From NCBI GenBank assembly GCA_964367235.1, contig CAYIXI010000001.1:14878-78877 (forward strand): a stretch of 64,000 bases of DNA, written 5' to 3'. The notes beneath the pieces were generated by a model. That model had not been told where the DNA came from. It was given only the letters and a program-made list of their open reading frames with translations, and searched no databases. Within the stretch, counting starts at the first letter, position 1; each line of letters starts with the position of its first letter. Shown here piece after piece: positions 16,817 to 45,473 of this stretch. The position numbers and the translations under genes were made by a program. This stretch comes from an uncultured Chitinophagaceae bacterium (GTDB lineage: Bacteria; Bacteroidota; Ignavibacteria; UBA10030; UBA8401).

Positions 16817-16825
16817 TTTTTTAAA

Positions 16826-17302
16826 ATGTCAATTAGAAAATTTGAAAAAAGCGATCGTGAAAATATTTTACATCACATTAAAGCAACAAATGTTTTTAAT
16901 GATGAAGAAGTTGAGATTGCAAAAGAATTAATTGATGTATTTTTAGATGAACCGAATCAAAAAGATTATGATTTATATGTTTATGCTGATGAAGAAAATA
17001 TTGCACAAGGTTATATTTGCATCGGACATACGCCAGCAACAATTGGCACTTACGATTTGTATTGGATAGTTGTGAATCCGAACGAACACAAAAAAGGAAT
17101 TGGTAAAGCGTTGCTCTATTATATTGAAGAGATGTTGAAACTTGTCGGTGGAAATTTGTTGATTGCAGAAACTTCCTCGACTCAAAAATATGATAACACA
17201 AGAAAATTTTATAAGCGAACTAATTTTATCGAACTTGTGCGAATAAAAGAATATTATCGTCCCGACGATGATTTAATAATTTTTGGAAAATATTTAAAAT
17301 AA
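16826..17302 (+). CDS. GNAT-family N-acetyltransferase (158 aa)
   Basis: Acetyl-CoA-binding motif A region NEHKKGIGKALL. Confidence 0.75.
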   Translation: MSIRKFEKSDRENILHHIKATNVFNDEEVEIAKELIDVFLDEPNQKDYDLYVYADEENIAQGYICIGHTPATIGTYDLYWIVVNPNEHKKGIGKALLYYIEEMLKLVGGNLLIAETSSTQKYDNTRKFYKRTNFIELVRIKEYYRPDDDLIIFGKYLK

Positions 17303-17317
17303 CTTACAGGAGATTTT

Positions 17318-18439
17318 ATGGAACTCTGGCAAAAATTGCTAAGAGAAAGTGTTGATTGCCCAAAACATTTAGTTGAAAAGTTTGGTTTCGAACCTAAACT
17401 TGCTGAACAATTAAATAATCTTTTTCATACTCGTATCAATCCATATTATTTGGGATTAATTCGCGAGCCCGGCGATCCGATTTGGTTGCAATGTATGCCA
17501 AATGCTTTGGAGTTAAATGATGACAAAGCTCCACTTGATCCTCTAAATGAAGAAGCCAATAGTCCTGTTCCAAGTATTACTCATCGTTATCCCGATAGAG
17601 TTTTATTTTTAACTACAAGTCAGTGCGCAATGTATTGTCGTTTCTGCACAAGAAAAAGAAAAGTTGGAGACTCTGGAAAAATTTCGATGAAATTTATTCA
17701 ATCTGGTTTGGATTATATTGCCGCGCATCCCGAAGTTCGTGATGTAATTCTTTCTGGTGGCGATCCTTTAATGTTAACCGATGTAATGCTCGAAAAAATT
17801 CTTTCCGGTCTTCGAAAAATTCCACATATCGAAATCATTCGTCTTGGAACAAGAATGCCTTGCGTTCTTCCTCAACGCGTTACGCCAAATCTCGTAAAAA
17901 TGTTGAGCAAATATCATCCAATTTATGTCAATGTTCATTTTAATCATCCTTGGGAATGCACCGATGAGGCAAAAAAAGCTTGTGAAATGTTAGCCGATGC
18001 TGGTTGTCCAGTTGGAAATCAAGCAGTTTTGATGAAAGGGGTAAACGACAATGCCGATGTAATGCTCGAGCTTCATCGAAAACTTTTATCGATGAGAGTT
18101 AGACCTTATTATTTGTATCAAGCCGATATTACGCGCGGTGCAAATCATTTTAGAACTCCGTTAAAAGTTGGACTTGAAATTATGGATAAACTTCGCGGAC
18201 ACACATCTGGTTTAGCAATTCCGGCTTTTGTAATTGATGCGCCCGGTGGTGGCGGAAAAATTCCAATTCTTCCACAATATGTTTTGGGTAGAAAAGATAA
18301 CAAAATTATTTTGCGAAATTATAAATATGATGTTTTTGAATATCCCGATGTTATTGATGATAACACCGGAGACCCAATTGCTGATAAAGAAAAAGTGAGG
18401 AAGAAAGTTATCAAGAAAAAAGAAACCGTTGCGGTTTAA
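17318..18439 (+). CDS. kamA: KamA-family radical-SAM aminomutase (lysine 2,3-aminomutase-like)
   Basis: CAMYCRFCTRKRK radical-SAM cluster motif. PLP/KAM-family motifs GGDPLM, VNVHFNHP, YLYQADITRGANHFRT. 373 aa, a size intermediate between EpmB and clostridial KamA. Confidence 0.8.
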   Translation: MELWQKLLRESVDCPKHLVEKFGFEPKLAEQLNNLFHTRINPYYLGLIREPGDPIWLQCMPNALELNDDKAPLDPLNEEANSPVPSITHRYPDRVLFLTTSQCAMYCRFCTRKRKVGDSGKISMKFIQSGLDYIAAHPEVRDVILSGGDPLMLTDVMLEKILSGLRKIPHIEIIRLGTRMPCVLPQRVTPNLVKMLSKYHPIYVNVHFNHPWECTDEAKKACEMLADAGCPVGNQAVLMKGVNDNADVMLELHRKLLSMRVRPYYLYQADITRGANHFRTPLKVGLEIMDKLRGHTSGLAIPAFVIDAPGGGGKIPILPQYVLGRKDNKIILRNYKYDVFEYPDVIDDNTGDPIADKEKVRKKVIKKKETVAV

Positions 18440-23734: not shown

Positions 23735-24058
23735 ATGTCACAACAACCACCACAACAAATAAATATAGAATTGGGCGAAAAAGAAGCCGAAGGAATTTAT
23801 TCGAACCTTGCAATCATTACTCACTCGCCAGCCGAGTTTGTAATTGATTTCACACGGATTTTGCCCGGTGTGCCGAAATCGAAAGTTTTTGCCAGAATAA
23901 TTATGACGCCACAGCATGCAAAATTATTATTGAATGCACTTGGCGATAATATTGAAAAATTTGAATCTAAATTTGGAGCGATTAATTTAGTTCAAGATGA
24001 AAAAATGCCACAAAATTTTGGATTCCAAATTACACAAAAAGATGAGAAAGTACATTAA
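23735..24058 (+). CDS. DUF3467-family small protein
   Basis: IELGEKEAEGIYSNLAIITHSPAEFVIDF ... MTPQHAKLL matches my recollection of DUF3467. Confidence 0.55.
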   Translation: MSQQPPQQINIELGEKEAEGIYSNLAIITHSPAEFVIDFTRILPGVPKSKVFARIIMTPQHAKLLLNALGDNIEKFESKFGAINLVQDEKMPQNFGFQITQKDEKVH

Positions 24059-24119
24059 TAATTTTTTTATAATAAAATTTTTAAAACATAAATGGAGTAA
24101 ATATTTTTCATTTGAAAAA

Positions 24120-26321
24120 ATGATTTTTGTTTTGTTCCCTTTTTTTATTTTTGGTTGCGTAAAAATTCTGACACCAAAACTTCCATCTTGGCAAACACAA
24201 CTTACAATTCCGCTGGTAGATAGAACTTTCACACTTGAAGATTTTATGAAAAAATCCTCCAGTCTTTTTATTGATTCAACAAATGGTGAAATCTCCTATA
24301 GGCCAGCAGAAATTCAAAACAAACCCGACACAATTAAGTTACCTTCATTTTCGCCTCAACCATCAAGAGTATCACAGGTTATAGGTCCATTACCGTGGCC
24401 AAATATAAATTTACCTCCATCAATCTCATCTTTTAAAAATATAACTGGGCAAGATCCTCCTGTTATTCCTTTTCCTGGAGCAGATATAATAGGAATTTTT
24501 ACTAAAGATGTTAATTTAGATATTTCTGGTCAATTAGATGTTTTTGATTTTGGAACTTTTGAAGATGGAAGTTTGGAAATAACTTTTATAAATACTTTTG
24601 CTTTTGGATTTAATTTTACAAACGGAATTGCAATAAGAAATAGAGATGATAACTCATTAGTTGCACAATATCCAGCATTTATTTTAGCGGCTGGTGAAAC
24701 AAAAAAAATGAGCGTAGTTGTAACTGGTAAAACCTTAAAAGATCAAATTAGCATTTCGGGTAATTTTCAAACGCAAAATATAACCGGTAAAATAATTACA
24801 TCATTAAATACAATTGCAATTTCAACACAAATTACTGGAAGTAGTGGAACAGGAAACGCTTCTTTATCGGAAGCAAAAATTTTATTTGTTGGTAATATTG
24901 ATCTTGTAAATCTTCCAAACGAATCGGATCAAATTTTAGATGACTCAACTTATTATAAAACCTTAGAGTTCAGTAAAGGTGGATTTGATATTAGAGTAGT
25001 TAATGGTACAAATTTTGGTGTTAAAGTTGTTTTCGAAATTAAAGAATTTATAAATAAATCTAGTAGTCAGCCATTTTTTATTAGTGGTACTTCAAAAGAG
25101 GCAACGATAAGTAAAAACGCCACTTTTTTGCGTGAAGTTCTTTTAGTCGATTATAAACTTCAAAGCCAGGAACTAAACAATGCGCCAACAAATAAAATTA
25201 ATTTTAATTTAAAAATACAAACTCTTATTCCGAGTTTTGTTGATAAAATTTTAGTTCGTAAAACAGATTCTGTTGTTGCTGAGATTGTACCAAAAAAAGA
25301 TAATCTTGGAAGTACAATTCCGTACAAACTACATAAAGTGCTTGGTAAAATAACACCTATTACAATAGCTATTGATCAAACTATGCCACTGGCAACTGGA
25401 GATTTTAAAACAAAATTTAAAGCCGATAGTATTATGTTTGATTCGCTTTATTTGGCTTATAAACTTTTTACTTCAGGTCTTTTTCCGACAGACATTTCTT
25501 TGAAAATTTACGCAATAAATAGTAATGGTATTAGGGGTGATTCGTTAACTTTGCCAACAAATTTTGTAATTCCAATTTCAGGTAAACAAGTTAGGAGAAT
25601 TTTACCTGGACAAATTGATTCAATTGTTTTTAATAAAAATAACAGTACGCTTGATAGATTTATATCATCATTTATTTCAAATGGGCAAGGGTTTTTCCCG
25701 GACTCAATTAGAATAAAAGGAACTGTAGAAATTAACCCGATTGATGTTTATAAAGACCCAAATTCTTTTGGCGGAGCGACTGACGGAGATACTGTTGTTA
25801 CTTCAGTTAGGTTTGCGTTTCCAATGAGGATAGGAATTAAAAATGGAACTTTGCGCGATACAACTATAATTGGTGATACAACAGCAAGCGGTACAGGTTC
25901 AAATAAAATTGATAAAGAAAGTTTATCAAATATTGTGCAAGGAAAAATTTTCTTCAGTATTGAAAATACATTTCCATTTCAAATTCAAATTAAAGCTGGC
26001 TTGTACGATAAAAGTAAAGATAATTTTTCAATACCCGATACTATAGCACTAATGTATTTACCGATGAATAAAGATACGATTTTAGTTGATAGTGCAAGAT
26101 ATAGTCAATCGCCTGTTCGCCCCGGAAAATCTTACACAGCATTTGCTTTAACTCCCGCAGATGTTGATAAATTTAATCCAGCTACTTTTATGACTCTTGC
26201 AATAAATATTCGCACTTCTGGCAATGGAGATAAAGCGGTTATTTTCAGAAAAGATAATTACCTGCATATCAAATCTTTTGCAAGTGTAACTTTTAATGTA
26301 GATTTCAATAAAAAGAAATAA
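24120..26321 (+). CDS. Large predicted lipoprotein (about 733 aa, beta-rich, no recognisable family)
   Basis: The track ORF starts at 23997 and overlaps DUF3467. The in-frame ATG at 24120 gives MIFVLFPFFIFGC with a lipobox-like FGC. The stop TAA directly abuts the ATG of the next gene. Confidence 0.45.
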   Translation: MIFVLFPFFIFGCVKILTPKLPSWQTQLTIPLVDRTFTLEDFMKKSSSLFIDSTNGEISYRPAEIQNKPDTIKLPSFSPQPSRVSQVIGPLPWPNINLPPSISSFKNITGQDPPVIPFPGADIIGIFTKDVNLDISGQLDVFDFGTFEDGSLEITFINTFAFGFNFTNGIAIRNRDDNSLVAQYPAFILAAGETKKMSVVVTGKTLKDQISISGNFQTQNITGKIITSLNTIAISTQITGSSGTGNASLSEAKILFVGNIDLVNLPNESDQILDDSTYYKTLEFSKGGFDIRVVNGTNFGVKVVFEIKEFINKSSSQPFFISGTSKEATISKNATFLREVLLVDYKLQSQELNNAPTNKINFNLKIQTLIPSFVDKILVRKTDSVVAEIVPKKDNLGSTIPYKLHKVLGKITPITIAIDQTMPLATGDFKTKFKADSIMFDSLYLAYKLFTSGLFPTDISLKIYAINSNGIRGDSLTLPTNFVIPISGKQVRRILPGQIDSIVFNKNNSTLDRFISSFISNGQGFFPDSIRIKGTVEINPIDVYKDPNSFGGATDGDTVVTSVRFAFPMRIGIKNGTLRDTTIIGDTTASGTGSNKIDKESLSNIVQGKIFFSIENTFPFQIQIKAGLYDKSKDNFSIPDTIALMYLPMNKDTILVDSARYSQSPVRPGKSYTAFALTPADVDKFNPATFMTLAINIRTSGNGDKAVIFRKDNYLHIKSFASVTFNVDFNKKK

Positions 26322-27767
26322 ATGAATCGTTCACTAAAAATTTTTATTTTTATTTTTATTTTTCAAAATATTTCTTTTGGAAACGAAAGAACATCGGCAC
26401 GCGGAATTGGAATGGCGCGAACTTTTGTAGTTACTTCTCGTGGTGTTGATGCGCTTGGAATAAATCCTGCAAATCTTTCTTACCTCGATAGAGGAAGTTA
26501 TACGACTATGTCGTTGTTGCCAATTGGCGTACGAGCTGGAAGTGATTTTATAAATTTTAAAGTCTACAACGATTATTTTACTGGCGACCCCGATAGTTTA
26601 GATAAAGATGGAAATAGAATTATTGGACGACGACTTGATGCAAATGATAAAGATGGAATTTTTAATCTTTTTCCAAGTGGAATTGCGCACACTCAATCTG
26701 ATTTTGACGCAATGCTTTTAGGATTTACTTCTATCGGTGGAAATTATGCAATTGGTTTTTCTGTTACCGAAAGATTTTCTGCTGGGCTTGATCTTCCCGA
26801 AGGATATTTAAAAATTCTTTTAAATGGATTTGAGGAAAAAGGCTCGGAACATACATTAAATAATACTAATTATGGCGTTAGATGGATGAGAGAATATAAT
26901 TATTCGTTCGCTTATCATTTTGCGAAAAATGTTAGTTTGTGGAAATTCCGAGACATCAGCGTTGGTATAAGTTACAAACCCGTGCAAGGATTTTATTACG
27001 CAGGCACCGATCATTATAATGGATCGCTTCAAAATAAAATTTATTACAATAAAGATAGTGTAAATTGGATTGACTCAATACAAATTATTGGAAATATAGA
27101 TTATGCGCAATTTCAATCTTCAATTCCAATTGATTCAATTTCGCAATTTCTTTTTAAACCTGCTGGAAAAGGAACAGGATTTGATATTGGTGTATCGGCA
27201 AAAATTATATCTGGTTGGCAATTTGGAATGAGTATTACAGATATTGGTTCGATACTTTGGTCGAAATCTCCAAAATATTCTTACGGAAAAGGAAATTTTA
27301 CAATTTCAGATTTGGGTAAAGCCGGACAACTTGATTCGCTCAAAAATAATTTTAAAGGAAAAACAATCGACACAACTTCTTTTAAAAGAAATTTGCCAAC
27401 AATAATTCATCTTGGCGCTGCAATTCAACTTGATGAATCTCCTTATGTGAATAGAAAAACTTTTGCAGGAAAATTATTATTAGAAGGAAATATTCATATT
27501 GGTTTAAATGATGAACCAGGCAATACAACACTACCTCGTTTTTCAGTTGGTGCAGAATATGTAATTCCTTCCCGTTGGGTTGATTGGTTGAGGATTAGAA
27601 GTGGGATGATGTTTGGTGGAAGAGAATTATTTTCGTGGTCTTTGGGAATTGGAATTGTAAATCCAGTTTTCGATTTTGATATTGGAACTGAAAGTATTGC
27701 ATTAATTATAACTCCAAATAGTTTCAGAAATGGTTCAGTCTCGATGGGTTTAAAAATCAGGATGTAG
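26322..27767 (+). CDS. FadL/TodX/PorV-like outer-membrane beta-barrel protein
   Basis: Signal peptide then SARGIGMARTFVVTSRGVDALGINPANL, the FadL-family hatch N-terminus (SxxGxGxA ... NPA); beta-strand-rich; C-terminal aromatic residues. Confidence 0.55.
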   Translation: MNRSLKIFIFIFIFQNISFGNERTSARGIGMARTFVVTSRGVDALGINPANLSYLDRGSYTTMSLLPIGVRAGSDFINFKVYNDYFTGDPDSLDKDGNRIIGRRLDANDKDGIFNLFPSGIAHTQSDFDAMLLGFTSIGGNYAIGFSVTERFSAGLDLPEGYLKILLNGFEEKGSEHTLNNTNYGVRWMREYNYSFAYHFAKNVSLWKFRDISVGISYKPVQGFYYAGTDHYNGSLQNKIYYNKDSVNWIDSIQIIGNIDYAQFQSSIPIDSISQFLFKPAGKGTGFDIGVSAKIISGWQFGMSITDIGSILWSKSPKYSYGKGNFTISDLGKAGQLDSLKNNFKGKTIDTTSFKRNLPTIIHLGAAIQLDESPYVNRKTFAGKLLLEGNIHIGLNDEPGNTTLPRFSVGAEYVIPSRWVDWLRIRSGMMFGGRELFSWSLGIGIVNPVFDFDIGTESIALIITPNSFRNGSVSMGLKIRM

Positions 27768-30922: not shown

Positions 30923-32284
30923 TTAAAAGTGGGAAGTCAATTCAGTTTTAAAAATATCTACAAGCGAATTTGCAAGTGCAATTGATTTTGCTTCGGCAAT
31001 AATCCTTATAATTGGCTCGGTATTTGAAGCGCGTAAATGCACCCACGAATCGGCAAAATCAATTTTCACACCATCAATTGTTGTGATGTTTTCAGCGCAA
31101 TATTTTTCTTCAATTATTTTTAAAATTTTATTTGCGTTTCCAGTTGTAAAATCAATTTTACCTTTTGATATAAAATATTGTGGAAGTGCCTTTTTTAATT
31201 CCGAAGCTGACTTGTTAGACTCGGTTAAGTATTGCAAAAATAATCCGATGCCAACAATTGCATCGCGCCCAATGTGTAATTCGGGAAAAATTACTCCGCC
31301 ACTTCCTTCGCCACCAATCACACAATTTTCTTTTTTCATTAAAGTTGCGACATTAATTTCTCCAACTGCAGTGCGAAAAACTTGCGCGCCATATTTTTTT
31401 GCAACATCATCAACAGCTCTTGTAGTTGAAAGATTCACAGCAACAGAACCAAAATTTCTTCCTTGTTTTGATTCGTAATTTAAAATAAAATCAATCACCG
31501 ATGTAACTGTGTATTCTTCAACAAACGGTTCACCAAATTCATTTATCAAAACAAGTCTATCAACATCGGGGTCAACTGCAATTCCGAAATCAGCTTTTTC
31601 TTTTTTTACAAGATCGCAAAGCGCTGTCAAATTTTCGGGGATCGGTTCGGGAGTGTGAGAAAAAATTCCGCTCACATCGCAATTAATCGGAATAATTTCG
31701 CATCCAAATTTTTCAAGCAGTGCAGGAACAATTATTCCACCAGCGGCATTAACGCAATCCAATGCAACTTTAAATTTTTTATTTCTGATTTGTTCTAAAT
31801 TAATTTGAGGAAGATTTAAAATCGCAGAGATATGTCTTTCGATAAATGAGGCGTCGAAAACATGGTCACCTTTAATTTCGCTTTCAGCGATTGAATCGTT
31901 CTCGGCAATATCCCAAAAAATTTTATTTTCATCGGCGTTTAAAAACATTCCAGTTCGCGAAATAAATTTCATTCCATTCCACTGGTTCGGATTATGACTT
32001 GCAGTAATTGAAATTCCGCCATTTGCGTGCAGATGTTCGACTGCAATTTGAACAGTCGGAGTTGGAACAATTCCCAAATCAATTACTGTGCAACCAGCAG
32101 AAGTTAAATATTTTGCAACGGTATTTGAAATTTCTTTTCCGCTTTGGCGACCATCGCGTCCAATAATTATTGTGCCGAATTTAGAATACTTTGCAAATGC
32201 AAAACAATATTTTTTAATTATTTCAGGCGATAAAGTTTCTCCGACAATTCCGCGAATCCCTGAAATGCTAACCATTAATGACAT
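30923..32284 (-). CDS. glmM: Phosphoglucosamine mutase (alpha-D-phosphohexomutase family)
   Basis: Active-site loop TASHNPNQWNGMKF, GIRGIVGE N-terminus; 453 aa. Confidence 0.6.
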   Translation of the reverse strand: MSLMVSISGIRGIVGETLSPEIIKKYCFAFAKYSKFGTIIIGRDGRQSGKEISNTVAKYLTSAGCTVIDLGIVPTPTVQIAVEHLHANGGISITASHNPNQWNGMKFISRTGMFLNADENKIFWDIAENDSIAESEIKGDHVFDASFIERHISAILNLPQINLEQIRNKKFKVALDCVNAAGGIIVPALLEKFGCEIIPINCDVSGIFSHTPEPIPENLTALCDLVKKEKADFGIAVDPDVDRLVLINEFGEPFVEEYTVTSVIDFILNYESKQGRNFGSVAVNLSTTRAVDDVAKKYGAQVFRTAVGEINVATLMKKENCVIGGEGSGGVIFPELHIGRDAIVGIGLFLQYLTESNKSASELKKALPQYFISKGKIDFTTGNANKILKIIEEKYCAENITTIDGVKIDFADSWVHLRASNTEPIIRIIAEAKSIALANSLVDIFKTELTSHF

Positions 32285-32360
32285 AAGTTCTCTCTTTTAT
32301 TTTTACAAAATTACAAAAGTTGCGCTGTATAATCAATTTAAACATTTAGTATATTTTAAT

Positions 32361-34547
32361 ATGATTAAGACTGAAATATTTTTCGTTGAAGGAATGACTT
32401 GCGCAAGTTGTGTCGCCAAAGTTGAAAAAGCAATTAAATCGGTTGATGGAGTTATTGATGTTGCAGTAAACCTTGCAAGTGAAAAAGTAAAAATTGAAAT
32501 CGAAAACGAAAATATAGAAAAAATATTTGAATCTGTTGCGAGCGCAGGTTATAAACTTCTCACAATTTCTTCTGAAAAAAATATTATTGATTTGCAAAAA
32601 GAAACATTCAAAAAAATGGGACGCGAACTTTTATTGAGTGTTGTCTTAACAATTCCGATTACACTTATTTCGATGTTCAGTATGAGCGAGTGGTTTGTTC
32701 GGGTTGTACCACTTTCAATGGAAAATATAAATTACATTTTATTTGCAATGACTTTAATTGTAATTTTAACAAGTGGCAGAAAATTTTATAAAATTGCACT
32801 GAAGCTTGCTCTAAAAAAAACATCCGACATGAATACACTTGTAGCAGTCGGCACAGGAGTTGCTTTTTTATACAGCGCAAGCGTAACATTTTTTCCAAAA
32901 TATTTTTCACTTTACAACATACAACATTCTGATGTTTATTTTGACACAACTGCAACAATCATCACTTTAATTTTACTCGGAAAATATTTTGAAACGCGAG
33001 CAAAAATAAAAATGATTGATTCGATTTCTTCGCTTGTTTCGCTTCAACCAAAAGTTGCGCACATTTTAAAAGATGGAACGATTGAAGATGTATCGGTTGA
33101 TTTTGTAAAAGTTGGCGAGATTTTTATTTTAAAGCCGGGAGAAAAAATTCCATTCGACGCAGTAATTGAATCTGGCTCGACAACTATTGATGAATCAATG
33201 ATTACGGGAGAAAGTCTACCGACTGAAAAAAATATCGGAGACAAAATTATTGGTGGCACAATAAATTTTCAGGGAAGCATTACGGCGAAAATTTTGGCTG
33301 TCGGCAAAAATATGCTTTTATCGCACATTGTTTCGCATGTTGAAAAAGCGCAAAGTTCAAAGGCGCAAATTCAAGGTTTGGCTGATAAAGTAACATCAAT
33401 TTTCGTTCCGATAATTTTTGCGATTTCAATTTCCACTTTTCTGATTTCATATTTTATTTTTGAAATTGATTTTATAATTGCGCTTCTCAACTCAATTGCA
33501 GTTTTAATAATTGCTTGCCCTTGCGCGCTTGGTTTAGCTACGCCAACTGCGTTAATTGTTGCAACAGGAAAAGCCGCGCGAAAAGGAATTCTCGTAAAAA
33601 ATGCGGAGAGTTTGGAACGCTCATGCAATATTCAAACAGTTGTGTTTGATAAAACCGGGACTTTAACCGAAGGAATGCCGAAAGTAAATTCATTTGAAAT
33701 ATTTTTTGGATTTGATGAGAAATATATTTTCCAACTTTTATTTGGGATTGAACAATCTTCCGAGCATCCAATTGCAAAATCGATTGTGAAATATCTGAAA
33801 GAGAAAAACATTTTGCCGATTAATGTAGAAAACTTTGAAGCAAAAATTGGAGTTGGCGCTTTGGCATTTTATGAAAATATAAAACTCGTTGTTGGAAATA
33901 AAAAATTACTCAACGAAGAAAATATTTTAATTCCAGAAAAATATCAAAAAGATGAAAGCCATCTCACAAAAATATTTTTTGCAGTCGATAGAAAAATTGC
34001 TTGTGTAATGTTTTTATCTGACACAGTTCAAGAAAATGCACGAGAAGTTATCGAGTCGCTAAAAAAAGAAAAAGTTGATGTGATGATGTTAAGTGGCGAC
34101 ACAGTCCAAAGCGCAAAACAAATTGCAGAGAAACTTGGTATCGTTAGATTTATGGCAATGGTTTCTCCGATGGATAAAAGTTCAATCATAAAAAGTTTGC
34201 AATCAAAAAAAGAAATTGTTGCAATGGTTGGAGATGGAATTAATGATGCGCCAGCACTTGCCCAAGCCGATGTAAGTATTGCGCTTGGAAGAGGAACGGA
34301 AATTGCAATGGAAACTGCCGACATTACTTTAATGAGAAATAATTTAAACGGAGTTTTAGAAATAATAAAACTTTCTCGTCAAACAATGCGCACAATAAAA
34401 CAAAATCTTTTTTGGGCATTCATCTATAATATTATTTGCATTCCACTTGCCGCAGTTGGATTTTTAAGCCCAACAATCGCGTCACTTGCAATGGCAACAA
34501 GTTCAATTAGCGTAATTTTAAATTCACTTCGATTAAAAATTAGATAA
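32361..34547 (+). CDS. copA: Copper-translocating P-type ATPase
   Basis: N-terminal HMA domain GMTCASCVAKVEKA, CPC transmembrane motif, DKTGTLT, GDGINDAP. The track ORF extends to 32088 but overlaps glmM on the opposite strand; the HMA domain begins at ATG 32361. Confidence 0.9.
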   Translation: MIKTEIFFVEGMTCASCVAKVEKAIKSVDGVIDVAVNLASEKVKIEIENENIEKIFESVASAGYKLLTISSEKNIIDLQKETFKKMGRELLLSVVLTIPITLISMFSMSEWFVRVVPLSMENINYILFAMTLIVILTSGRKFYKIALKLALKKTSDMNTLVAVGTGVAFLYSASVTFFPKYFSLYNIQHSDVYFDTTATIITLILLGKYFETRAKIKMIDSISSLVSLQPKVAHILKDGTIEDVSVDFVKVGEIFILKPGEKIPFDAVIESGSTTIDESMITGESLPTEKNIGDKIIGGTINFQGSITAKILAVGKNMLLSHIVSHVEKAQSSKAQIQGLADKVTSIFVPIIFAISISTFLISYFIFEIDFIIALLNSIAVLIIACPCALGLATPTALIVATGKAARKGILVKNAESLERSCNIQTVVFDKTGTLTEGMPKVNSFEIFFGFDEKYIFQLLFGIEQSSEHPIAKSIVKYLKEKNILPINVENFEAKIGVGALAFYENIKLVVGNKKLLNEENILIPEKYQKDESHLTKIFFAVDRKIACVMFLSDTVQENAREVIESLKKEKVDVMMLSGDTVQSAKQIAEKLGIVRFMAMVSPMDKSSIIKSLQSKKEIVAMVGDGINDAPALAQADVSIALGRGTEIAMETADITLMRNNLNGVLEIIKLSRQTMRTIKQNLFWAFIYNIICIPLAAVGFLSPTIASLAMATSSISVILNSLRLKIR

Positions 34548-38267: not shown

Positions 38268-39188
38268 ATGCCTTTATATAAAAAAATTAAAAAACAACTT
38301 TTTGAAGTTGTAAAAGAAAAGTCTTTTAAATTTGAAAAAGAAATTCAAAGTATAGTCGAACAAAATCTAAAAAGTTTTTTAAATTTAAAGTTTATTAGAA
38401 GTGAATTTCAGATTGGAAACTTAAGAATTGATACTTTAGCGTTTGATGAAGAAACTAATTCGTTCCAAATCATTGAATATAAAAGAGGATCTGATTATTC
38501 TGTTGTTGACCAAGGAATGAGTTATTTAGGCTTATTATTAAATAACAAAGCAGACTTTTTATTAGAGTATAATGAACACTTTAATATTAATTTAAAAAGA
38601 GACGATATTGACTGGTCGCAGTCAAAAGTTATTTTTATTTCTCCATTTTTTAATCAGTATCAAAGAAATTCAATTAATTTTAAAGATTTACCGATTGAAT
38701 TATGGGAAATTTATCGATTTGAAAACAATCTAATTCAGTTAGAACAATACAAATCTACAATAGCTAACGCATCTTTGAAAAGTGTTATCAAAAAAAGTAA
38801 GATTATAACAGAAATTGATAAAGAGTTTTTTAATATTACTGAAGATCATCATCTTAAAAAAGTAAAACCACAAATTAAAGAGACTTATTTAAAATTAAGA
38901 GATTTAATTTTATCGATTGATACAAACATTAGAATTAAACCATTAAAAAAATGGATTGCATTCGTTTCTAAAACAAATTTTGTTGATCTGTCAATATTAA
39001 GTAGTTCAATAAATATTTTTATTAATGTTAAAAAAAATAAACTTATTGACCCAAAAAATTTATCAAGAGATGTATCAAAAATTGGACATTGTGGTAATGG
39101 TGATTACATGGTAAAAATAAAATCAGATGAAAATTTAGTTTATATATTTAATGAATTGATAAAGCAATCTTATAAAATAAATAGTTGA
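38268..39188 (+). CDS. PD-(D/E)xK nuclease-like N-domain protein with uncharacterised C-terminal domain (DUF5655-like?)
   Basis: RIDTLAFDEETNSFQIIEYKRG gives D55 ... E70-x-K72, a NucS/RecB-like catalytic core. Even more AT-rich than its neighbours. GAGG RBS right after the DUF948 stop. Confidence 0.45.
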   Translation: MPLYKKIKKQLFEVVKEKSFKFEKEIQSIVEQNLKSFLNLKFIRSEFQIGNLRIDTLAFDEETNSFQIIEYKRGSDYSVVDQGMSYLGLLLNNKADFLLEYNEHFNINLKRDDIDWSQSKVIFISPFFNQYQRNSINFKDLPIELWEIYRFENNLIQLEQYKSTIANASLKSVIKKSKIITEIDKEFFNITEDHHLKKVKPQIKETYLKLRDLILSIDTNIRIKPLKKWIAFVSKTNFVDLSILSSSINIFINVKKNKLIDPKNLSRDVSKIGHCGNGDYMVKIKSDENLVYIFNELIKQSYKINS

Positions 39189-39249
39189 AATTTTAAAAAA
39201 ATAGGATTTCAAAAAACTGACAAAATAATCACATAGGAGAAAAATCTAC

Positions 39250-41364
39250 ATGAGCAATATTAATGCTTTTAAAGAGTACAGCACTTCTCAAATCCGCAAT
39301 ATAGCTTTAATCGGTCACGGTGGTTCAGGCAAAACAAGTTTTAGCGAAGCAGTTTTATTTTCAACAGACAAAACTACTCGGCAAGGTACAATTCAAGAGG
39401 GGAATACAATCAGCGATTATCATCCCGATGAGATTGAACGAAAAATTTCAATCAACACTTCGCTTTTAGTAACTGAATTGGAAAATGCAAAAATAAATAT
39501 TTTTGATACACCCGGTTACAACGATTTTACTGGCGAAGTAAAGTCATCACTTTTTGTTGCCGATACTGCGCTACTTTTTATAAAAGCATTTGAGGGAATT
39601 GAAGTTGGTACTGAAATCGTTTGGGAATATGTGAAAGAATTTTATCTTCCCGCATTATTTTTAATTTCAAAAATTGATCACGACAATGCTGAGTACGAAA
39701 ATGTTTTAAAATCGATTAAAGAAAAACTTACAAATGACGCGACAATTATAACTTTTCCAGTAAACTCTGGGCATGGATTTGATGCTGTGGTTGATGTTGT
39801 AAAAATGAAAATGCTAAAATTTATTCCGCACAAAAACGGAAAATATATTGAAGAGGAAATTCCTGCAGAATTTATTGAAAAAGCAAAAGCGCTTCACGAG
39901 GAGTTGATTGAAAAAATTGCAGAGAGTGACGAAGTAATGTTGAATAAATTTTTTGAACATGGCACTTTGCACGACGATGAAATTACTGTTGGAATGCGAG
40001 ATGCGATGGAGCATAGAAAACTTTATCCTGTTTTTGCAGTTTCATCAACTTCAAATGTTGGCGCATTAAATATTGCAGAGTTTGTTGCGCGATATTCTCC
40101 TGCGCCGAACGAACGACCAGCAGTAAAAGCAATTGATGCAAATACAAAAAAAGAAGTTGAAGTTAAAATTGATGACAAAAAAGAGACTTCACTTTATATT
40201 TTTAAAACAGTTAGCGAAGCGCATGTTGGCGAATTATCTTTCTTTAAAGTTTTTACCGGAATGGCTCTTCACGGACAAGATTTAATGAACGAGGCAAATG
40301 GAAAACCAGAACGACTCGGTCAGATATTTATCATGAATGGAAAAGAGAGATTTGAAATGGCTAAAATCCATTCAGGCGATATTGGAACAGTTGTAAAATT
40401 AAAAGATTCTCACACAACAAATACGCTCTCTTCAAAATCGTACCCAATTATTTTTTCTAAAATCCCTTTTCCCGCTCCAGTAATTAGTTTAGCAATTCAT
40501 CCAAAAGCAAAAGGAGAAGAAGATAAAGTTGGACAAGGCTTGCATGTTTTGCACGAGGAAGATCCGACTTTTGAATTTAAAATTGATAACGAAACACACG
40601 AAACAGTAATTAGCGGACAAGGTGAATTACATTTAGAAATTGTTGTGCGAAGATTAAAACAAAAATTTGGTGTTGATGTTGAAATCAGCGAACCAAAAAT
40701 TGCGTATCGCGAAACTATCAAAAGTAAAACGCTTGACTCCGAATACAAACATAAAAAACAATCTGGCGGTCGCGGGCAATTTGGTCATGTGCATTTAAAA
40801 ATCGAACCAAACGAACGGGGAAAAGGTTTTGAGTTTATCAACGAAATTGTTGGCGGAGTTGTGCCGGGAAGATTTATCCCCGCAGTTGAAAAAGGTTTGG
40901 TCGATACAATTTCGCAAGGAATAATTGCTGGCTTTAAAGTTGTCGATGTAAAAGTAACTTTGTTTGATGGCTCGTTTCACGATGTTGACTCTGACGAAAT
41001 CTCTTTTAAAATAGCAGGTTCGCAGGCTTTCAGAAAAGGATTTAAAGAAGCGCGACCAATTTTGCTTGAACCGATTTACATAATTGAAGTGATTGTTCCA
41101 GACGAATATATGGGCGAGGTGATGGGAGATATTTCCAGCAGACGAGGAAAAATTTTAGGAATGGAATCCGATGGCTCGCACCAAATTATTAAAGGACAAG
41201 TTGCGTTAAAGGATTTGTATCGATACTCAACAACACTTCGCTCGATGTCGCAGGGAAGAGGAATACATAAACAAAAATTTTCTCATTACGAAGAAGTGCC
41301 AAGAGAGATTGCAGAAAAAATTGTTGCTGAATACGAAAAACTTAGACAAGAAGAACATAATTAA
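39250..41364 (+). CDS. EF-G-family translational GTPase paralog with degenerate G motifs
   Basis: Five-domain EF-G layout (704 aa). G1 GHGGSGKT; G3 is DTPGY rather than DTPGH; G4 is SKID rather than NKxD. Confidence 0.75.
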   Translation: MSNINAFKEYSTSQIRNIALIGHGGSGKTSFSEAVLFSTDKTTRQGTIQEGNTISDYHPDEIERKISINTSLLVTELENAKINIFDTPGYNDFTGEVKSSLFVADTALLFIKAFEGIEVGTEIVWEYVKEFYLPALFLISKIDHDNAEYENVLKSIKEKLTNDATIITFPVNSGHGFDAVVDVVKMKMLKFIPHKNGKYIEEEIPAEFIEKAKALHEELIEKIAESDEVMLNKFFEHGTLHDDEITVGMRDAMEHRKLYPVFAVSSTSNVGALNIAEFVARYSPAPNERPAVKAIDANTKKEVEVKIDDKKETSLYIFKTVSEAHVGELSFFKVFTGMALHGQDLMNEANGKPERLGQIFIMNGKERFEMAKIHSGDIGTVVKLKDSHTTNTLSSKSYPIIFSKIPFPAPVISLAIHPKAKGEEDKVGQGLHVLHEEDPTFEFKIDNETHETVISGQGELHLEIVVRRLKQKFGVDVEISEPKIAYRETIKSKTLDSEYKHKKQSGGRGQFGHVHLKIEPNERGKGFEFINEIVGGVVPGRFIPAVEKGLVDTISQGIIAGFKVVDVKVTLFDGSFHDVDSDEISFKIAGSQAFRKGFKEARPILLEPIYIIEVIVPDEYMGEVMGDISSRRGKILGMESDGSHQIIKGQVALKDLYRYSTTLRSMSQGRGIHKQKFSHYEEVPREIAEKIVAEYEKLRQEEHN

Positions 41365-41370
41365 AAAAAG

Positions 41371-41410
41371 TAAGAATACTTCTCGCGATTTTTCGTGAGA
41401 AGTATTCTTA
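41371..41410. terminator. Bidirectional 17-bp hairpin terminator between convergent EF-G-like and cytochrome-porin genes
   Basis: TAAGAATACTTCTCGCG-N6-CGTGAGAAGTATTCTTA; U-runs on both strands. Confidence 0.7.
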
Positions 41411-41416
41411 AATGTT

Positions 41417-42538
41417 TTAAATAAAGAAGTGAAAAACTAATTGATATTCATTGTTTTCGATTTGAGTTGTTGGCTCTAAATTAATTCTATAAAGATTTAA
41501 AATTTCTACACCGCTTACCGGATAAACGCTAAAGCCAATTGAATGGCGAGTATATTTAATTTCCTTTGCGCCACCATGTAAAATATTACTTGGAGATAAT
41601 TGAATTTCTGAAGAGATGTGGTCTTCCATAGTTTTAGTTTCAAAAGAATATCTTAAATCAAATCCGGTTGTAACTTGATAATGCATTGAAAGATTATTTA
41701 TATCTTTAAAGTCGTCAAAAAATCCGAGATTAGTTTTTAAATTTACAAATTCATACATCAAAGTAAAATTTTTATCAATCGTAAATCCACCGAAATAATT
41801 TTTTACAATTCTTTTATTTGCAAATTCAGGCATAAGATAATACGAGCCACCCAACATAAAATTTAAAAATGAAAAAGAATTTTGATATTCAGTTCTTAAA
41901 ATTACGGCTTTAGATTTTTTCGGAGGAAAACCCAATCCGCCGGGATTGCCATTGAAAATACCAGCAGTGATTAAAAAATCATCAGGCGCAAAACCAATTT
42001 CCAAACCTGCATCTTCGCTTCTTTCACCAAAACCAATTTCGCTTCGTGTCCAAGTATTGTGGTCATCAGTTTTAATTCCAAAAGATGGAGTGAATTGACC
42101 AACTTTCAAAAATCCTTTTGCAGGTAAATTTTTTGCAAGCGCAAATAATTCAAAACCATCGCGCAATCCTTTATCAAAATATAAACGAACAACTTTATTA
42201 ATTTTTAAATCAAAATATAAATCGCCTTGCATTTGAAAAAATTGTGATTTTTTATTTTCAGAATTTTGATAAAATAAAGTACGAGCATCAAAACCAATCG
42301 TAAAAAAATCGTTTAATTTCGGGGTGAATTCTTCGAATTCAGTTTCAGCGCGAAACATTTGCAAGGGCAATTCATCCTGCGAAAACGAAACGCCGAAAGA
42401 ATTCCGCATTCCTTTTCCGGTGGGATTGATGTGGCACGATTGGCACGATGCGCCCGAACGAAGCGAAAAAAGTGGAAGCGCAAAAAGAGAATTTGAATTT
42501 AAAACAATTAATAGTGCAAAAATAATTTTTCGATTCAT
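41417..42538 (-). CDS. Secreted monoheme CXXCH + beta-barrel protein (Cyc2-like fused cytochrome-porin candidate)
   Basis: Signal peptide MNRKIIFALLIVLNSNSLFA, then CQSCH 13 residues into the mature protein. About 340 aa of alternating-hydrophobic beta-strand-like sequence ending in aromatic ...HFFI. Confidence 0.45.
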   Translation of the reverse strand: MNRKIIFALLIVLNSNSLFALPLFSLRSGASCQSCHINPTGKGMRNSFGVSFSQDELPLQMFRAETEFEEFTPKLNDFFTIGFDARTLFYQNSENKKSQFFQMQGDLYFDLKINKVVRLYFDKGLRDGFELFALAKNLPAKGFLKVGQFTPSFGIKTDDHNTWTRSEIGFGERSEDAGLEIGFAPDDFLITAGIFNGNPGGLGFPPKKSKAVILRTEYQNSFSFLNFMLGGSYYLMPEFANKRIVKNYFGGFTIDKNFTLMYEFVNLKTNLGFFDDFKDINNLSMHYQVTTGFDLRYSFETKTMEDHISSEIQLSPSNILHGGAKEIKYTRHSIGFSVYPVSGVEILNLYRINLEPTTQIENNEYQLVFHFFI

Positions 42539-42618
42539 TTTTTATCCATGATTTTTATGAATATAAAAAATGAATTGCAAGATTGAAAGAGGTCGCATTA
42601 AATTGTATTTTGTAAAAA

Positions 42619-43668
42619 ATGTTGAAACTACCAGAAAAAATATTAGTTATGCGATTAAGTTCGATTGGTGACATTGTACTTGTTTCGCCACTTTTAAGAA
42701 TATTGCGCGAAAGTGCTGGAAAAAATTCTCAAATCGATTTTGTTGTCAAAACCGAATTTGCTGAACTTGTTTTCTCGAATCATAATTTGTCACTTATTCA
42801 TGAGTATGATTCAAAAACTGGATTTAAAGGATTGAAATCGCTCGCAAGAAAATTAAAAAAAGAGAAATACGATTTGGTTATTGACTTGCACGATAATTTG
42901 CGAACAAAATATTTGCGCAACTTCTGCGAGCCGAAAGAAGTTGTTTCAGTACAAAAAAATATTTGGGAGAGATTTCAATTAGTTTATTTAAAAAGAAATA
43001 CTTACTCGTCTATTAAACATGTAGCTGAAAAATATTTGCAAACTTTAAAAGATTATGGAATTAAAAATGACAATAAAGGAAATGAGATATTTATTCCCGA
43101 TACAACTCAGTTTGGAGTTTCGTCGCAAATAGCAACATTAAAATTAAATGACTTCAACAAAGTAATTGGTATTTGCGCTGGTGCGAAACATTTTACAAAA
43201 CGATGGCTCCCTGAGAGATTTGCCGAATTAGCAATAAATTTATCGCAAAAATATAATGCAAAAATATTTTTATTTGGTGGAGTTGATGATGCAATTATTT
43301 CACAATCTATTTTTGATAAAATCAAAAATACAATTGGAGAGAAATTTGTAAACGATTTTACAGGCAAATATTCTTTACTTCAAACTGCTCACGCATTTGA
43401 GTATTGCGATTTAATTATTTCCAACGATACAGGATTGATGCATTTAGCATCGGCAAAACAAAAACCAATCGTAGCAATTTTTGGTTCATCTGTAAAAGAG
43501 TTTGGGTTTTATCCTTTTGAAACAAAAAATATCGTAATCGAAAATAAAAATTTAAAGTGCAGACCTTGTTCGCACATCGGAAAAAGTTCCTGCCCTGAAA
43601 ATCATTTTAAATGTATGTTGGATATTCCAAGCAAAGAAGTTGAAATTGAAGCGGAAAAAATCTTATGA
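42619..43668 (+). CDS. Glycosyltransferase family 9 (LPS heptosyltransferase-like)
   Basis: MRLSSIGDIVLVSPLLRILRE N-terminus and overall GT9 layout; 349 aa. Confidence 0.8.
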   Translation: MLKLPEKILVMRLSSIGDIVLVSPLLRILRESAGKNSQIDFVVKTEFAELVFSNHNLSLIHEYDSKTGFKGLKSLARKLKKEKYDLVIDLHDNLRTKYLRNFCEPKEVVSVQKNIWERFQLVYLKRNTYSSIKHVAEKYLQTLKDYGIKNDNKGNEIFIPDTTQFGVSSQIATLKLNDFNKVIGICAGAKHFTKRWLPERFAELAINLSQKYNAKIFLFGGVDDAIISQSIFDKIKNTIGEKFVNDFTGKYSLLQTAHAFEYCDLIISNDTGLMHLASAKQKPIVAIFGSSVKEFGFYPFETKNIVIENKNLKCRPCSHIGKSSCPENHFKCMLDIPSKEVEIEAEKIL

Positions 43669-44084
43669 TTATCAACGAAAATGTAATGAAAATTGTAAAT
43701 TCAATTTCAAACTTGAAATGCAAAGATGATTTTGCGATGATTGTACAATCTGGAATAAATCAAAACAAGGAAGAAGTAATTGCGGAGATTGCATTTCTTT
43801 CGAAATTTGTTGTGCAAACTTTTAGTGTGATGAAAAGAATTGGCACGACTGGTGAAGGTTACGACAAACTTATGTTTGAGTGGAATGAGAATTTTGAAAA
43901 AGTTTCGACTCTACTAAAATTAATTGTAAAAGAAATTTTAAGAGATGATAAAAAAAGATTATCTGAAAAATATTTCTCAACTAATCAAGAGAGTTTTTCT
44001 AATCTCTTTAATTTATTAGAAGACTTCGCTCTGTACAAAAATTATTTAATAGATTCAGTTGAACTAAAAAGGAGAAAAGATTGA
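43665..44084 (+). CDS. Hypothetical protein (139 aa)
   Basis: ATGA overlap with the GT9 stop; no recognisable motif. Confidence 0.35.
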   Translation: MIINENVMKIVNSISNLKCKDDFAMIVQSGINQNKEEVIAEIAFLSKFVVQTFSVMKRIGTTGEGYDKLMFEWNENFEKVSTLLKLIVKEILRDDKKRLSEKYFSTNQESFSNLFNLLEDFALYKNYLIDSVELKRRKD

Positions 44085-44248
44085 AAGAAATCCGCTCGCT
44101 TCTAATATTAACATTAATTCTTTTTATCCTTTTTCTTTTGATTGATCCACCTTTTACTCTGTTTGGAAAAATAATTGCTGGAGTTATTTTTGGATTACTC
44201 ACATTGATAATATTAAAGATTAACAAAGGAATAAAAAAGATTGAATAG
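44081..44248 (+). CDS. Small hypothetical membrane protein (55 aa, TTG start; not in ORF track)
   Basis: AAAGGAG RBS 5-6 nt upstream of TTG, which overlaps the previous TGA as TTGA; two predicted TM helices. Confidence 0.3.
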   Translation: MKEIRSLLILTLILFILFLLIDPPFTLFGKIIAGVIFGLLTLIILKINKGIKKIE

Positions 44249-44287
44249 TTATTTTTTAATAAATAAAATTTCATTAAATTTTAGCAA

Positions 44288-44788
44288 ATGAAAATAGATA
44301 AAATATTTTTAGTTGTATTTACAGTCTGCGCAATTATGTGGTTGGGACTAACATCCGCCAGATTAATTATTAGCAATGAAATGTTGAGTTCAAAAACTTA
44401 TCAATATTTACCGCAAATAAATATACAAACTGAATTTGTTTATTTTTCAGTTATAAGTAAAATAATTTATTTGAATTTAATTTTGTACGCACTAATTTTA
44501 ATTTCAGCAATTGGTTTTATTCTTACAAAAGAAATTAGTTTTAAAGAAAATCCTTATTTGCTTACATCAGCAATTATGTATTTTATGTTTGTGCCTGTTG
44601 AAATATATTGCGCCAATTTAGATTGGAATTTTATTTGGCTCGGCTGGAAAAACTCAATCAATATCGAAGAGTATCGACATTTATTTATGGAGAGAATCCG
44701 TGCATTTAGTGGTTTACCAATGATTGCAATTTTATGTTATTACACAATTATCCCACTAATAATTTTTAAACCATTCAATAAAAAATGA
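44288..44788 (+). CDS. Hypothetical multi-pass membrane protein (166 aa)
   Basis: 4-5 hydrophobic helices; no motif recognised. Confidence 0.35.
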   Translation: MKIDKIFLVVFTVCAIMWLGLTSARLIISNEMLSSKTYQYLPQINIQTEFVYFSVISKIIYLNLILYALILISAIGFILTKEISFKENPYLLTSAIMYFMFVPVEIYCANLDWNFIWLGWKNSINIEEYRHLFMERIRAFSGLPMIAILCYYTIIPLIIFKPFNKK

Positions 44789-45045
44789 AGCATGAAGAAG
44801 TATTAAATTTTTTAGAAAACGAATCTAAAAAAAATGGAATTAATATCAGATACGAAAAAGGAGATTTTGACGGCGGATTTTGTATTTTGCGAGATGAGCA
44901 GGTGATTGTGATAAATAGAAAACTTTCCGATTTGAGAAAATTATTAATTTTGAGCGACGCGATGAGCAAGTTTGGTTTTGATAAAATCGAATATCCACTG
45001 GAAATTCAACTTATTTTAAATAAAGAAGAAGAGAAGGTAAAATGA
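44785..45045 (+). CDS. Hypothetical protein (86 aa)
   Basis: ATGA overlaps at both ends place it in the operon. Confidence 0.35.
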   Translation: MKHEEVLNFLENESKKNGINIRYEKGDFDGGFCILRDEQVIVINRKLSDLRKLLILSDAMSKFGFDKIEYPLEIQLILNKEEEKVK

Positions 45046-45473
45046 AAATTCTTGTAATTCATGGACCAAATTTAAATCTTTTAGGCTCGCGCGAAACTGA
45101 AATTTATGGAACGCAAACTTTAAATAATCTTTGTGATGATATTATAAAAAATAATCCGAAGCATGAATTAACTTTTTTTCAATCCAATCACGAAGGTGAT
45201 ATTATAGATAGATTGCATTTAGCGATGAATGATGGAATAAAAGGAATAATAATTAATGCAGGTGCGTTCACACATTATTCTTACGCAATTCGTGATGCGA
45301 TTTCTTCAATTAAAATTCCAACTGTCGAAGTACATTTATCAAACATTCACTCACGCGAAGAATTTAGAAAAATTTCTGTTTTGCAAGATGTGTGCATTTC
45401 ACAAATATCTGGTTTGGGGATTGAAGGATATTATTTAGCAATAAATATTTTATCAGAAAAAGAAAATGATTAA
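45042..45473 (+). CDS. aroQ: 3-dehydroquinate dehydratase, type II
   Basis: MKILVIHGPNLNLLGSRETEIYG ... HLSNIHSRE canonical AroQ motifs. Confidence 0.9.
   Translation: MKILVIHGPNLNLLGSRETEIYGTQTLNNLCDDIIKNNPKHELTFFQSNHEGDIIDRLHLAMNDGIKGIIINAGAFTHYSYAIRDAISSIKIPTVEVHLSNIHSREEFRKISVLQDVCISQISGLGIEGYYLAINILSEKEND

Follow-up and report, generated by a model that had tools for sequence, protein, structure and literature searches.

A predicted monoheme cytochrome-porin of Ignavibacteria from a large unannotated family remotely homologous to Cyc2

The 64,000-nucleotide stretch of DNA analysed here (called the window throughout), a part of contig CAYIXI010000001.1 of an uncultured Ignavibacteria bacterium (Bacteroidota), contains at positions 41,417-42,538 a gene whose 373-residue product is very probably a heme-binding porin of the Cyc2 superfamily. 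Sequence and profile comparisons indicate true homology to Cyc2 along the whole protein, which nevertheless belongs to a separate and divergent clade. Known Cyc2 proteins fall into cluster 1 (with Mariprofundus ferrooxydans PV-1), cluster 2 (with Acidithiobacillus ferrooxidans) as well as cluster 3 (with Cyt572 of Leptospirillum) (PMC8406198; PMC7029218). Outer-membrane electron transfer by the window protein is likely, and we consider the model as a whole, in which a monoheme c-type cytochrome joined to a 16-strand porin serves as a conduit in the outer membrane, reasonably probable.

The gene corresponds exactly to one open reading frame (ORF) including the stop codon, with an ATG start, as judged from the ORF list and its translation; the coordinates of the original prediction were correct, and the strand, which it did not give, is minus. 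The positions below refer to the minus strand wherever features of this gene are concerned. The exact product is deposited as MEK7818491.1, 'MAG: hypothetical protein AAB255_01715 [Bacteroidota bacterium]' (MAG, metagenome-assembled genome), and an exact-match cluster look-up records the identical complete protein from 20 contigs. Housekeeping proteins encoded next to it belong to this MAG as well. The ORF is real, and its frame is unbroken in the window. A second, public assembly of the same genome, long-read-style in character (ENA ERZ1286166 contig_59, locus L128; 429 kb), 99.75% identical to window positions 38,412-45,112, carries the gene as two pieces of 143 and 230 residues because a homopolymer differs in length by 1 bp. 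Ten 1-bp indels occur within 6.7 kb of that contig, and they also break the adjoining genes for a GT9 heptosyltransferase and an elongation factor G (EF-G) paralog, and the split is therefore an assembly artefact; a pseudogene can be rejected on the same grounds and on the intact copies of the protein. Fragments of 143, 230, 120, 210, 344 and 367 residues from this contig are present in the protein databases as separate entries.

The precursor starts with MNRKIIFALLIVLNSNSLFA, followed by LPLFSLRSGASCQSCHINPTGKGMR. Residues 1-20 (42,479-42,538) form a predicted Sec signal peptide, as claimed by the original prediction, which is supported on inspection by an n/h/c layout (MNRK, IIFALLIVL and NSNSLFA/LP, the slash marking the site) and by homology. 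There is no lipobox cysteine, cleavage is predicted after A20, and the mature chain would open with LPLF. An A-x-A-type site, A(-14)/A(-12) before [LV]-P, is kept both in the family of the window protein and in Cyc2. The heme c attachment site, C32-Q-S-C35-H36 (42,431-42,445), lies in the peptide SGASCQSCHINP, with H36 as the putative proximal axial ligand. A single CXXCH in this very peptide had been described correctly, although placed 13 residues into the mature chain; Cys32 is the 12th mature residue, a count that assumes the homology-based cleavage after A20. The motif is not a chance occurrence, because the protein has exactly two cysteines, both inside it, approximately 5e-4 CXXCH are expected per 373 residues from the window's own amino acid composition, no CXXCH other than CQSCH occurs in the window, whichever frame is read (segments between stops counted from 30 residues upwards), and C32, C35 and H36 are kept in all 234 full-length relatives.

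The cytochrome module comprises residues 21-78 (42,305-42,478) and includes, besides the CXXCH and two short helices predicted by AlphaFold2, two further motifs. The first, A-L-P-L-F-S-L-R-S-G (residues 20-29; 42,452-42,481), is Cyc2-like in the comparison with sequence logos of 85 Cyc2 proteins. The second, N-P-T-G-K-G-M-R (residues 38-45; 42,404-42,427; consensus NPTGGGMR), is specific to the family. Among the 234 relatives, R45 and G41 are 100% conserved, P39 94%, G43 91%, N38 89% and M44 72%; in the logo comparison glycine at +9 from the first cysteine reaches 98%. In the rest of the protein G82, G147 and G154 are each 100% conserved.

Beyond the CXXCH the predicted structure passes, after a helical stretch of approximately 40 residues, into 16 beta-strands that span residues ~79-371 (41,426-42,304), with short periplasmic turns and longer extracellular loops; at the barrel's periplasmic end the module connects to strand beta1. 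The amphipathic, strand-like body of the original prediction is thus modelled as a barrel and not as a helical domain, and the best structural match of this barrel is OprP, the template reported for Cyc2. The C-terminus reads ...YQLVFHFFI. The ending in aromatic residues (HFFI) had been read correctly as a sequence, but the last residue itself is the isoleucine that follows Phe-Phe. A lineage-specific insertion of about 16 residues (residues ~306-321; 41,576-41,623), seen in the alignment and not found in other family members, occupies the beta13-beta14 loop (extracellular loop L7), where the predicted local distance difference test (pLDDT) score falls below 50 at model residues 309-313 and 317-319. 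The structure model and the first alignment lack Met1, and their numbering is one below the true residue numbers.

Two positions within the barrel are candidates for the distal heme ligand. Met103 (42,230-42,232), in a QMQG motif of strand beta2, is conserved in 96% of the relatives (224/234). The other candidate, His160, is part of D158-D159-H160 (42,059-42,067; D159 86%, H160 95% conserved), which could alternatively provide a cation (Fe2+) site. This triad lies in the long beta5-beta6 loop, which contains a short helix between strands 141-148 and 175-182 (model numbering) and corresponds to loop L3 of porins, the loop that in classical porins is folded into the lumen. Both residues are retained here as candidates. 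Met44 is an unlikely distal ligand since it is merely 72% conserved. The identity of the ligand bears on the direction of electron flow: His/Met coordination would imply a higher potential fitting an Fe(II) oxidase, and bis-His coordination a lower one fitting a reductase.

For comparison with Cyc2, two reference sets were assembled. Public genomes were scanned for DNA encoding FARQTG-xx-CxxCH, which matched at least 120 loci where approximately four chance matches would be expected by a rough, composition-free estimate; Sideroxydans, Gallionella, Acidithiobacillus, Burkholderia and Ralstonia are among the matches listed. From these, 86 non-redundant full-length proteins of 401-549 residues make up the QT-type set. 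The KY-type set, 81 complete proteins of 381-522 residues, came from a metagenome scan for FARKY-xxx-CxxCH. Since the 167 reference sequences were selected by motif, the logo positions under the scan patterns are 100% conserved by construction.

In profile-profile comparisons (hhalign, each E-value referring to one pairwise comparison), the family of the window protein aligned with KY-type Cyc2 over its full length at a probability of 99.6% (E 1.8e-23; 343 colinear columns) and with QT-type Cyc2 at 97.5% (E 5.2e-12; 322 columns). The heme module alone gave 98.0% against the QT-type (E 1.5e-13; 42 columns). The barrel alone matched that of the KY-type at 98.2% (E 4.7e-14; 260 columns), a stronger match than the one between the barrels of the two Cyc2 types themselves (96.7%; E 3.8e-10; 328 columns), whereas the family and QT-type barrels gave no significant match (12.8%; E 0.0022; 113 columns). 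Generic beta-barrel periodicity was considered as the source of these scores and rejected, as Escherichia coli OmpF/OmpC reached only 0.4-1% (E 0.05-0.14) against each of the three profiles. The similarity extends well beyond the CXXCH, one of three points on which the original prediction had made the Cyc2 assignment depend, none of which turned out against it. Five upstream positions counted from the first cysteine, A(-12), P(-10), F(-8), A(-7) and G(-3), are common to the family and to Cyc2 at identical spacing in the logos, and the hhalign alignment adds K-x-G-[KR]-F (strand beta5) and G-x-E (strand beta6) to the shared elements. M103 and DDH158-160 have no conserved counterpart in the Cyc2 alignment and are specific to the family.

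The family is large and unannotated, and every named member is a 'hypothetical protein' in the databases. Sequence searches of Pfam, NCBIfam and PDB with the 373-residue protein returned no match even at E<=10. A word-indexed search found 111 homologs of approximately 360-400 residues from MAGs of Ignavibacteriales and Bacteroidota, all labelled 'hypothetical' and none with a Pfam domain. When 1.84 billion cluster representatives (50% identity) were searched with a profile, 2,992 were recovered at E<=1e-3, 1,497 of them at E<=1e-10 and 444 at E<=1e-30; distant members with taxon names come from Ignavibacteria, Nitrospirota and candidate division KSB1. The family signature can be written as A-x-P-[RK]-[FY]-[AS]-x-[RQK]-x-G-x-x-CxxCH-[VI]-N-P-[TS]-G-G-G-M-R. 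The window protein agrees with the signature of its own family (the P-[RK]...M-R pattern, M103, D159-H160, the barrel and the length of ~360-400 residues), scores 392 bits against the family hidden Markov model (HMM) and has every invariant column. The papers on Cyc2 and Ignavibacteria that we consulted mention hits to Cyc2-like or FeGenie models, but in them we found no description of this family with its signature, its size, its partner gene described below or its place relative to motif-defined Cyc2.

The genes next to those of the relatives suggest a redox partner. The sample consisted of eight loci, each belonging to the subset that the first homolog search had yielded; in seven of them the gene directly downstream of the cytochrome-porin encodes a cytochrome. 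In six of the eight this is a PSCyt1-type gene, present in one or two copies per locus and encoding a secreted monoheme protein of 119-134 residues that matches PSCyt1 (PF07635) (L121:9,109-9,471; L122:9,818-10,568; L124:7,157-7,528; L125:7,185-7,544; L126:7,917-8,321; L133:6,661-7,047). These partners share the pattern KCxxCH...NPSxLxMDSY...VPGK...GxxMP...WIxQGAKNN. Variants occur (L122:9,150-9,803; L126:7,126-7,845; L133:6,661-7,047): one is a TIG/Ig-like fusion with CAGCH, and the others have CVNEGCH (CX4CH) and CTANCH (CX3CH) in place of the usual motif. The seventh locus (L132:3,363-5,996) belongs to the most distant relative examined, P0111, at 26% identity. Here the downstream gene encodes an 877-residue fn3 protein with a sorting tail of the type IX secretion system (T9SS) and a single N-terminal CXXCH (GDGSNCASCHSG), which may be a monoheme protein of the cell surface. 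In two distant relatives a gene for a periplasmic YceI-family protein follows the cytochrome-porin gene immediately (L127:7,211-7,804; L133:6,074-6,664), and in one of these it stands between the porin and the PSCyt1 cytochrome. YceI proteins bind polyisoprenoids, and yceI of E. coli adjoins a cytochrome b561 gene; the neighbour hints at a lipid or quinone link. The closest of these loci, L121 (54% identity), has the same upstream synteny as the window (GT9 ... DHQase-HAD-ACPS) and a small PSCyt1 cytochrome gene where the window has only a terminator.

Canonical Cyc2 has neighbours of another kind. Among the 76 QT-type loci (of L001-L120) with enough downstream sequence, 31 have a diheme ORF of approximately 180-270 residues on the same strand no more than 1.5 kb downstream. 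One to three such ORFs follow cyc2 in tandem, consistent with cyc2-cyc1, which suggests that an arrangement of this kind is common well beyond Acidithiobacillus. An HMM of the PSCyt1-type partner matched only one of 120 QT loci, marginally, and one of 120 KY loci.

Cyc2 has been delimited by a signal peptide, one CXXCH, the motifs AXPXFAR[Q/K][T/Y] and PXL, a barrel of 16 strands like that of OprO/OprP, and a minimum of 365 residues; the first motif, upstream of CXXCH, was called 'unique to Cyc2' and was required for inclusion in the tree, PXL is found approximately four residues downstream of CXXCH, and most Cyc2 proteins have at least 400 residues (PMC8406198). Several observations weigh against the assignment of the window protein to Cyc2 and to electron transfer. 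First of all, the strict PxFAR[QK][TY] motif is matched by none of 240 family sequences; the arginine at -6 is lost and an arginine occurs at -5 instead. The PXL motif is absent too: the window protein has H-I-N-P-T-G-K-G-M-R, and in the logos NPTGGGMR occupies the place of the Cyc2 segment xxFPELTPFGR that holds PXL, with the proline of the family at +7 from the first cysteine where the Cyc2 set has proline at +8 and leucine at +10. Against HMMs that we built from Cyc2, the window protein reaches 8.7 bits (86 QT-type sequences) and 15.9 bits (81 KY-type sequences). In addition, the function of Cyc2 has been verified for few proteins and is uncertain for distant homologs (PMC8406198), and the cytochrome module of the predicted structure, modelled without heme, has a pLDDT of only 55-74. 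Finally, the downstream PSCyt1-type gene characteristic of the family is absent at the window copy, where what comes after the stop codon is the terminator and then the convergent gene for EF-G, and there are no other cytochrome, cytochrome-maturation or respiratory genes in the window.

Length is a borderline feature, 373 residues being just above 365 and below every one of the 167 reference proteins (381-549). At the HMMER level the median scores are 17-23 bits for the family against either Cyc2 type and 68-75 bits between the two types, and the weak links that appear are limited to the signal peptide and the heme motif; the best BLASTP score against the window protein is 37 bits, while E<=1e-5 in a database as large as nr takes about 63 bits. 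Because the HMMER scores are so low, the link to Cyc2 rests on the profile-profile comparison. With the two defining motifs failed and these HMM scores, the window protein appears to lie outside Cyc2 as delimited for clusters 1-3. What had been predicted as a 'Cyc2-type fused monoheme cytochrome-porin' holds as an architecture and as a remote homology, but not by the two published motifs.

A working model of the conduit would be as follows. The Sec system would export the precursor, and in the periplasm heme would be attached covalently to C32 and C35, with H36 as the proximal ligand. The barrel would be inserted in the outer membrane, and the cytochrome module of approximately 58 residues would sit at, or plug, the periplasmic mouth of the narrow 16-strand pore, which is where we would place the heme. 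A small soluble redox species could then enter the pore from outside and trade electrons with the heme one by one; judging from Cyc2, Fe2+ or chelated Fe3+ would be the most plausible substrate. A soluble periplasmic cytochrome would re-oxidise or re-reduce the heme, and in most relatives this carrier would probably be the adjacent PSCyt1-type protein. Since the window gene is monocistronic, a partner of the window copy must be encoded elsewhere. The iron oxidation or reduction that was originally proposed would be a further step beyond this architecture, and the window copy has no cytochrome partner or respiratory gene in the 64 kb.

Within this general scheme the direction of electron flow could differ. 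The window protein might be a canonical Fe2+ oxidase used for energy, like Cyc2 of clusters 1 and 2, with electrons from Fe2+ at the surface passing through a periplasmic cytochrome to a terminal oxidase or nitrate reductase and sustaining litho- or mixotrophic growth. Full-length homology to Cyc2, the same predicted 16-strand barrel with a single heme and the downstream periplasmic cytochrome of the relatives agree with this, as do surveys in which FeGenie assigned genes of Ignavibacteriales MAGs to 'iron oxidation' (Cyc2) (PMC8478452; PMC6344600). The defining Cyc2 motifs are nevertheless missing, the partner differs in type from Cyc1, and no partner, oxidase or carbon-fixation gene is found near the window copy. 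Moreover, Ignavibacteriales have been described as heterotrophs and relatives of Fe(III) reducers (PMC6344600; PMC8478452), and His160 as the distal ligand would argue for a low potential, so that we consider energy-conserving iron oxidation rather unlikely.

The architecture is direction-neutral, and the protein could equally be an outlet through which periplasmic cytochromes deliver electrons to soluble extracellular acceptors small enough for the pore (for example chelated Fe(III), a humic or quinone shuttle, or an oxygen species). Cyc2 homologs are on record from taxa that reduce Fe(III), Ignavibacteriaceae among them (PMC6344600), a bis-His heme with His160 would have the low potential suited to reduction, and the T9SS-tailed surface protein of the most distant relative suggests that electrons continue outward. 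Outward transfer is not known for any Cyc2-type protein that has been characterised, though, Met103 is an equally good candidate for the distal ligand and would imply a higher potential, and the window contains neither a multiheme cytochrome nor a porin-cytochrome complex. An outward route is accordingly regarded as doubtful, to the same degree as iron oxidation for energy.

It is improbable that the protein is mainly a porin in which the heme, or a metal bound by the CXXCH, serves as a plug, a gate or a redox sensor, or in iron or heme acquisition. The barrel does resemble substrate-specific and general porins, the gene stands among envelope genes (GT9 adjoining, LpxB and LpxK in the window) as a monocistronic unit with no redox partner, and the invariant charged residues D84, R86, E130, K145, D159, R165, E180 and E263 could line an ion path. 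Yet the invariant histidine of CXXCH and a module shared with Cyc2, a proven cytochrome, point to covalent heme, and the downstream cytochrome c genes in seven of eight relatives point to electron transfer.

Very improbable is an orphan remnant, decaying or non-functional in electron transfer after the loss of an adjacent partner: although the closest locus keeps its PSCyt1 gene beyond the shared upstream synteny, where the window has a terminator and then EF-G, and the window protein deviates at N247, V265 and S284, which are at least 85% conserved, besides having the loop insertion, the intact ORF keeps C32, C35, H36, G41, R45, G82, G147, G154, M103 and H160, scores highly against the family HMM and is identical on 20 contigs, position 265 is also off consensus in P0003, the closest relative in the alignment, so that this departure at least predates the window lineage, and a cyc2 gene standing alone is nothing unusual among known iron oxidisers.

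The cytochrome-porin conduit that we favour can be compared with known systems. Similarly to Cyc2, the window protein has a signal peptide followed by a heme module with a single CXXCH at the mature N-terminus, the A-x-P-x-F-A...G-x-x-CxxCH arrangement at identical spacing, a predicted 16-strand barrel resembling OprP/OprO and, in its relatives, often a periplasmic cytochrome gene just downstream. It differs from Cyc2 in that the family is without Arg(-6), has NPTGGGMR in place of PXL and is accompanied by a PSCyt1-type monoheme partner instead of a diheme c4/Cyc1-type one; the named taxa so far are Ignavibacteria/Bacteroidota, Nitrospirota and KSB1, while Cyc2 is found mainly in Proteobacteria. 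OprP and OprO, which are phosphate-selective porins from Pseudomonas aeruginosa (PDB 2O4V and 4RJW), and OmpF, OmpC, OmpT and Omp32 have no heme module. Sequence identity of the window protein to OprP/OprO and the general 16-strand porins is 7-14%, and the family has no profile similarity to E. coli OmpF/OmpC (0.4%). With MtrCAB, MtoAB/PioAB and the Pcc system of Geobacter the protein shares the general idea that electrons cross the outer membrane via a barrel with c-type heme. Those systems, however, consist of separate proteins with a 26-strand barrel and multiheme wires, whereas here one polypeptide would combine 16 strands and one heme. Pcc-type systems have been reported in Ignavibacteriales (PMC6137239). 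The general idea of Cyc2-like genes in Ignavibacteria is not new either, since such genes have been reported in Ignavibacteriaceae, among Fe(III)-reducing taxa, and in Ignavibacteriales MAGs (PMC6344600; PMC8478452).

In the window the gene forms its own transcription unit between a promoter region and a terminator. The 80-bp divergent intergenic region at 42,539-42,618, shared with the GT9 heptosyltransferase gene, is the presumed promoter site. A scan of this region for the sigma-70 consensus, which does not cover other promoter types, gave nothing better than shuffled sequence, and on inspection there is no evident Shine-Dalgarno sequence before the start codon. A terminator scan found an intrinsic terminator at 41,359-41,410 (minus strand), with an 18-bp stem at 41,371-41,410 followed on the minus strand by CTTTTTTT; the hairpin, with a T-run behind it, is located 6 bp past the stop codon and is common to the convergent EF-G gene. 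This EF-G paralog (39,250-41,364, plus strand; 704 residues) has all five EF-G domains and takes the place where L121 has the partner cytochrome and amidohydrolase genes. Searches of the entire window with tblastn and the partner HMM found no homolog of the PSCyt1-type partner.

The rest of the window is of a housekeeping nature and encodes SMC, LpxB, LpxK, QueA, IspD, PlsY, RecG, DnaG, isocitrate dehydrogenase, sigma-54 and DprA, together with a P-type metal ATPase, adenylate kinase, UvrA and cargo proteins with T9SS sorting tails. Because LpxB, LpxK and GT9 are encoded here, the organism has an outer membrane with lipopolysaccharide. Three other regions deserve mention. At 14,661-18,439 (plus strand) two tandem D-Ala-D-Ala-ligase-like ATP-grasp genes stand ahead of genes for a GNAT acetyltransferase and a lysine-2,3-aminomutase-like radical SAM protein. 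The aminomutase and acetyltransferase resemble the ablAB pair, which produces the osmolyte N-epsilon-acetyl-beta-lysine; the ATP-grasp pair could instead indicate a peptide containing beta-lysine. At 23,997-27,767 (plus strand) an ORF of 774 residues, with no Pfam match at E<=1e-6, is followed, after a gap of 1 bp, by the gene for a 481-residue DUF5723 protein, which suggests an operon. Finally, the ORF of the P-type heavy-metal ATPase (HMA and E1-E2 domains; 32,088-34,547, plus strand) overlaps from its GTG start the phosphoglucomutase gene (30,923-32,284, minus strand) by approximately 200 bp, and its true start is probably located further downstream.

Cyc2 is the main marker gene by which microbial iron oxidation is inferred from genomes and metagenomes, and the comparisons indicate that its architecture reaches into a very large, unannotated sister clade. 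Members of this clade fail the published motif filter and escape BLAST and HMMER at database scale, and yet have clear full-length homology and are usually found beside a small cytochrome gene. We tentatively raise the possibility that they form a fourth major clade of Cyc2-like cytochrome-porins, which would comprise approximately 3,000 clusters, grouped at 50% identity, from Ignavibacteria/Bacteroidota, Nitrospirota, KSB1 and further phyla, with its own NPTGGGMR/Met103/DDH signature. Together with a dedicated PSCyt1 partner of about 120 residues, sometimes joined by YceI or T9SS-tailed surface cytochromes, they would constitute an unrecognised two-component electron conduit. If so, Cyc2 pipelines based on motifs and BLAST would miss or misassign the clade, and a large part of this capacity in non-proteobacterial lineages would go unseen or be mislabelled when iron cycling and extracellular electron transfer are surveyed. 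For the genome of the window the claim is modest: its gene stands alone with no local partner and therefore does not by itself establish iron metabolism. The family also offers a comparison for the tuning of the heme pocket in cytochrome-porins, having a different distal segment on the same scaffold. If its members are active conduits, dissolved iron or similar species may be electron-exchange partners of heterotrophic Ignavibacteria and other unexpected lineages, and marker-gene surveys would need a new model. The relevance of the finding lies mainly in how the marker genes of iron cycling are defined.

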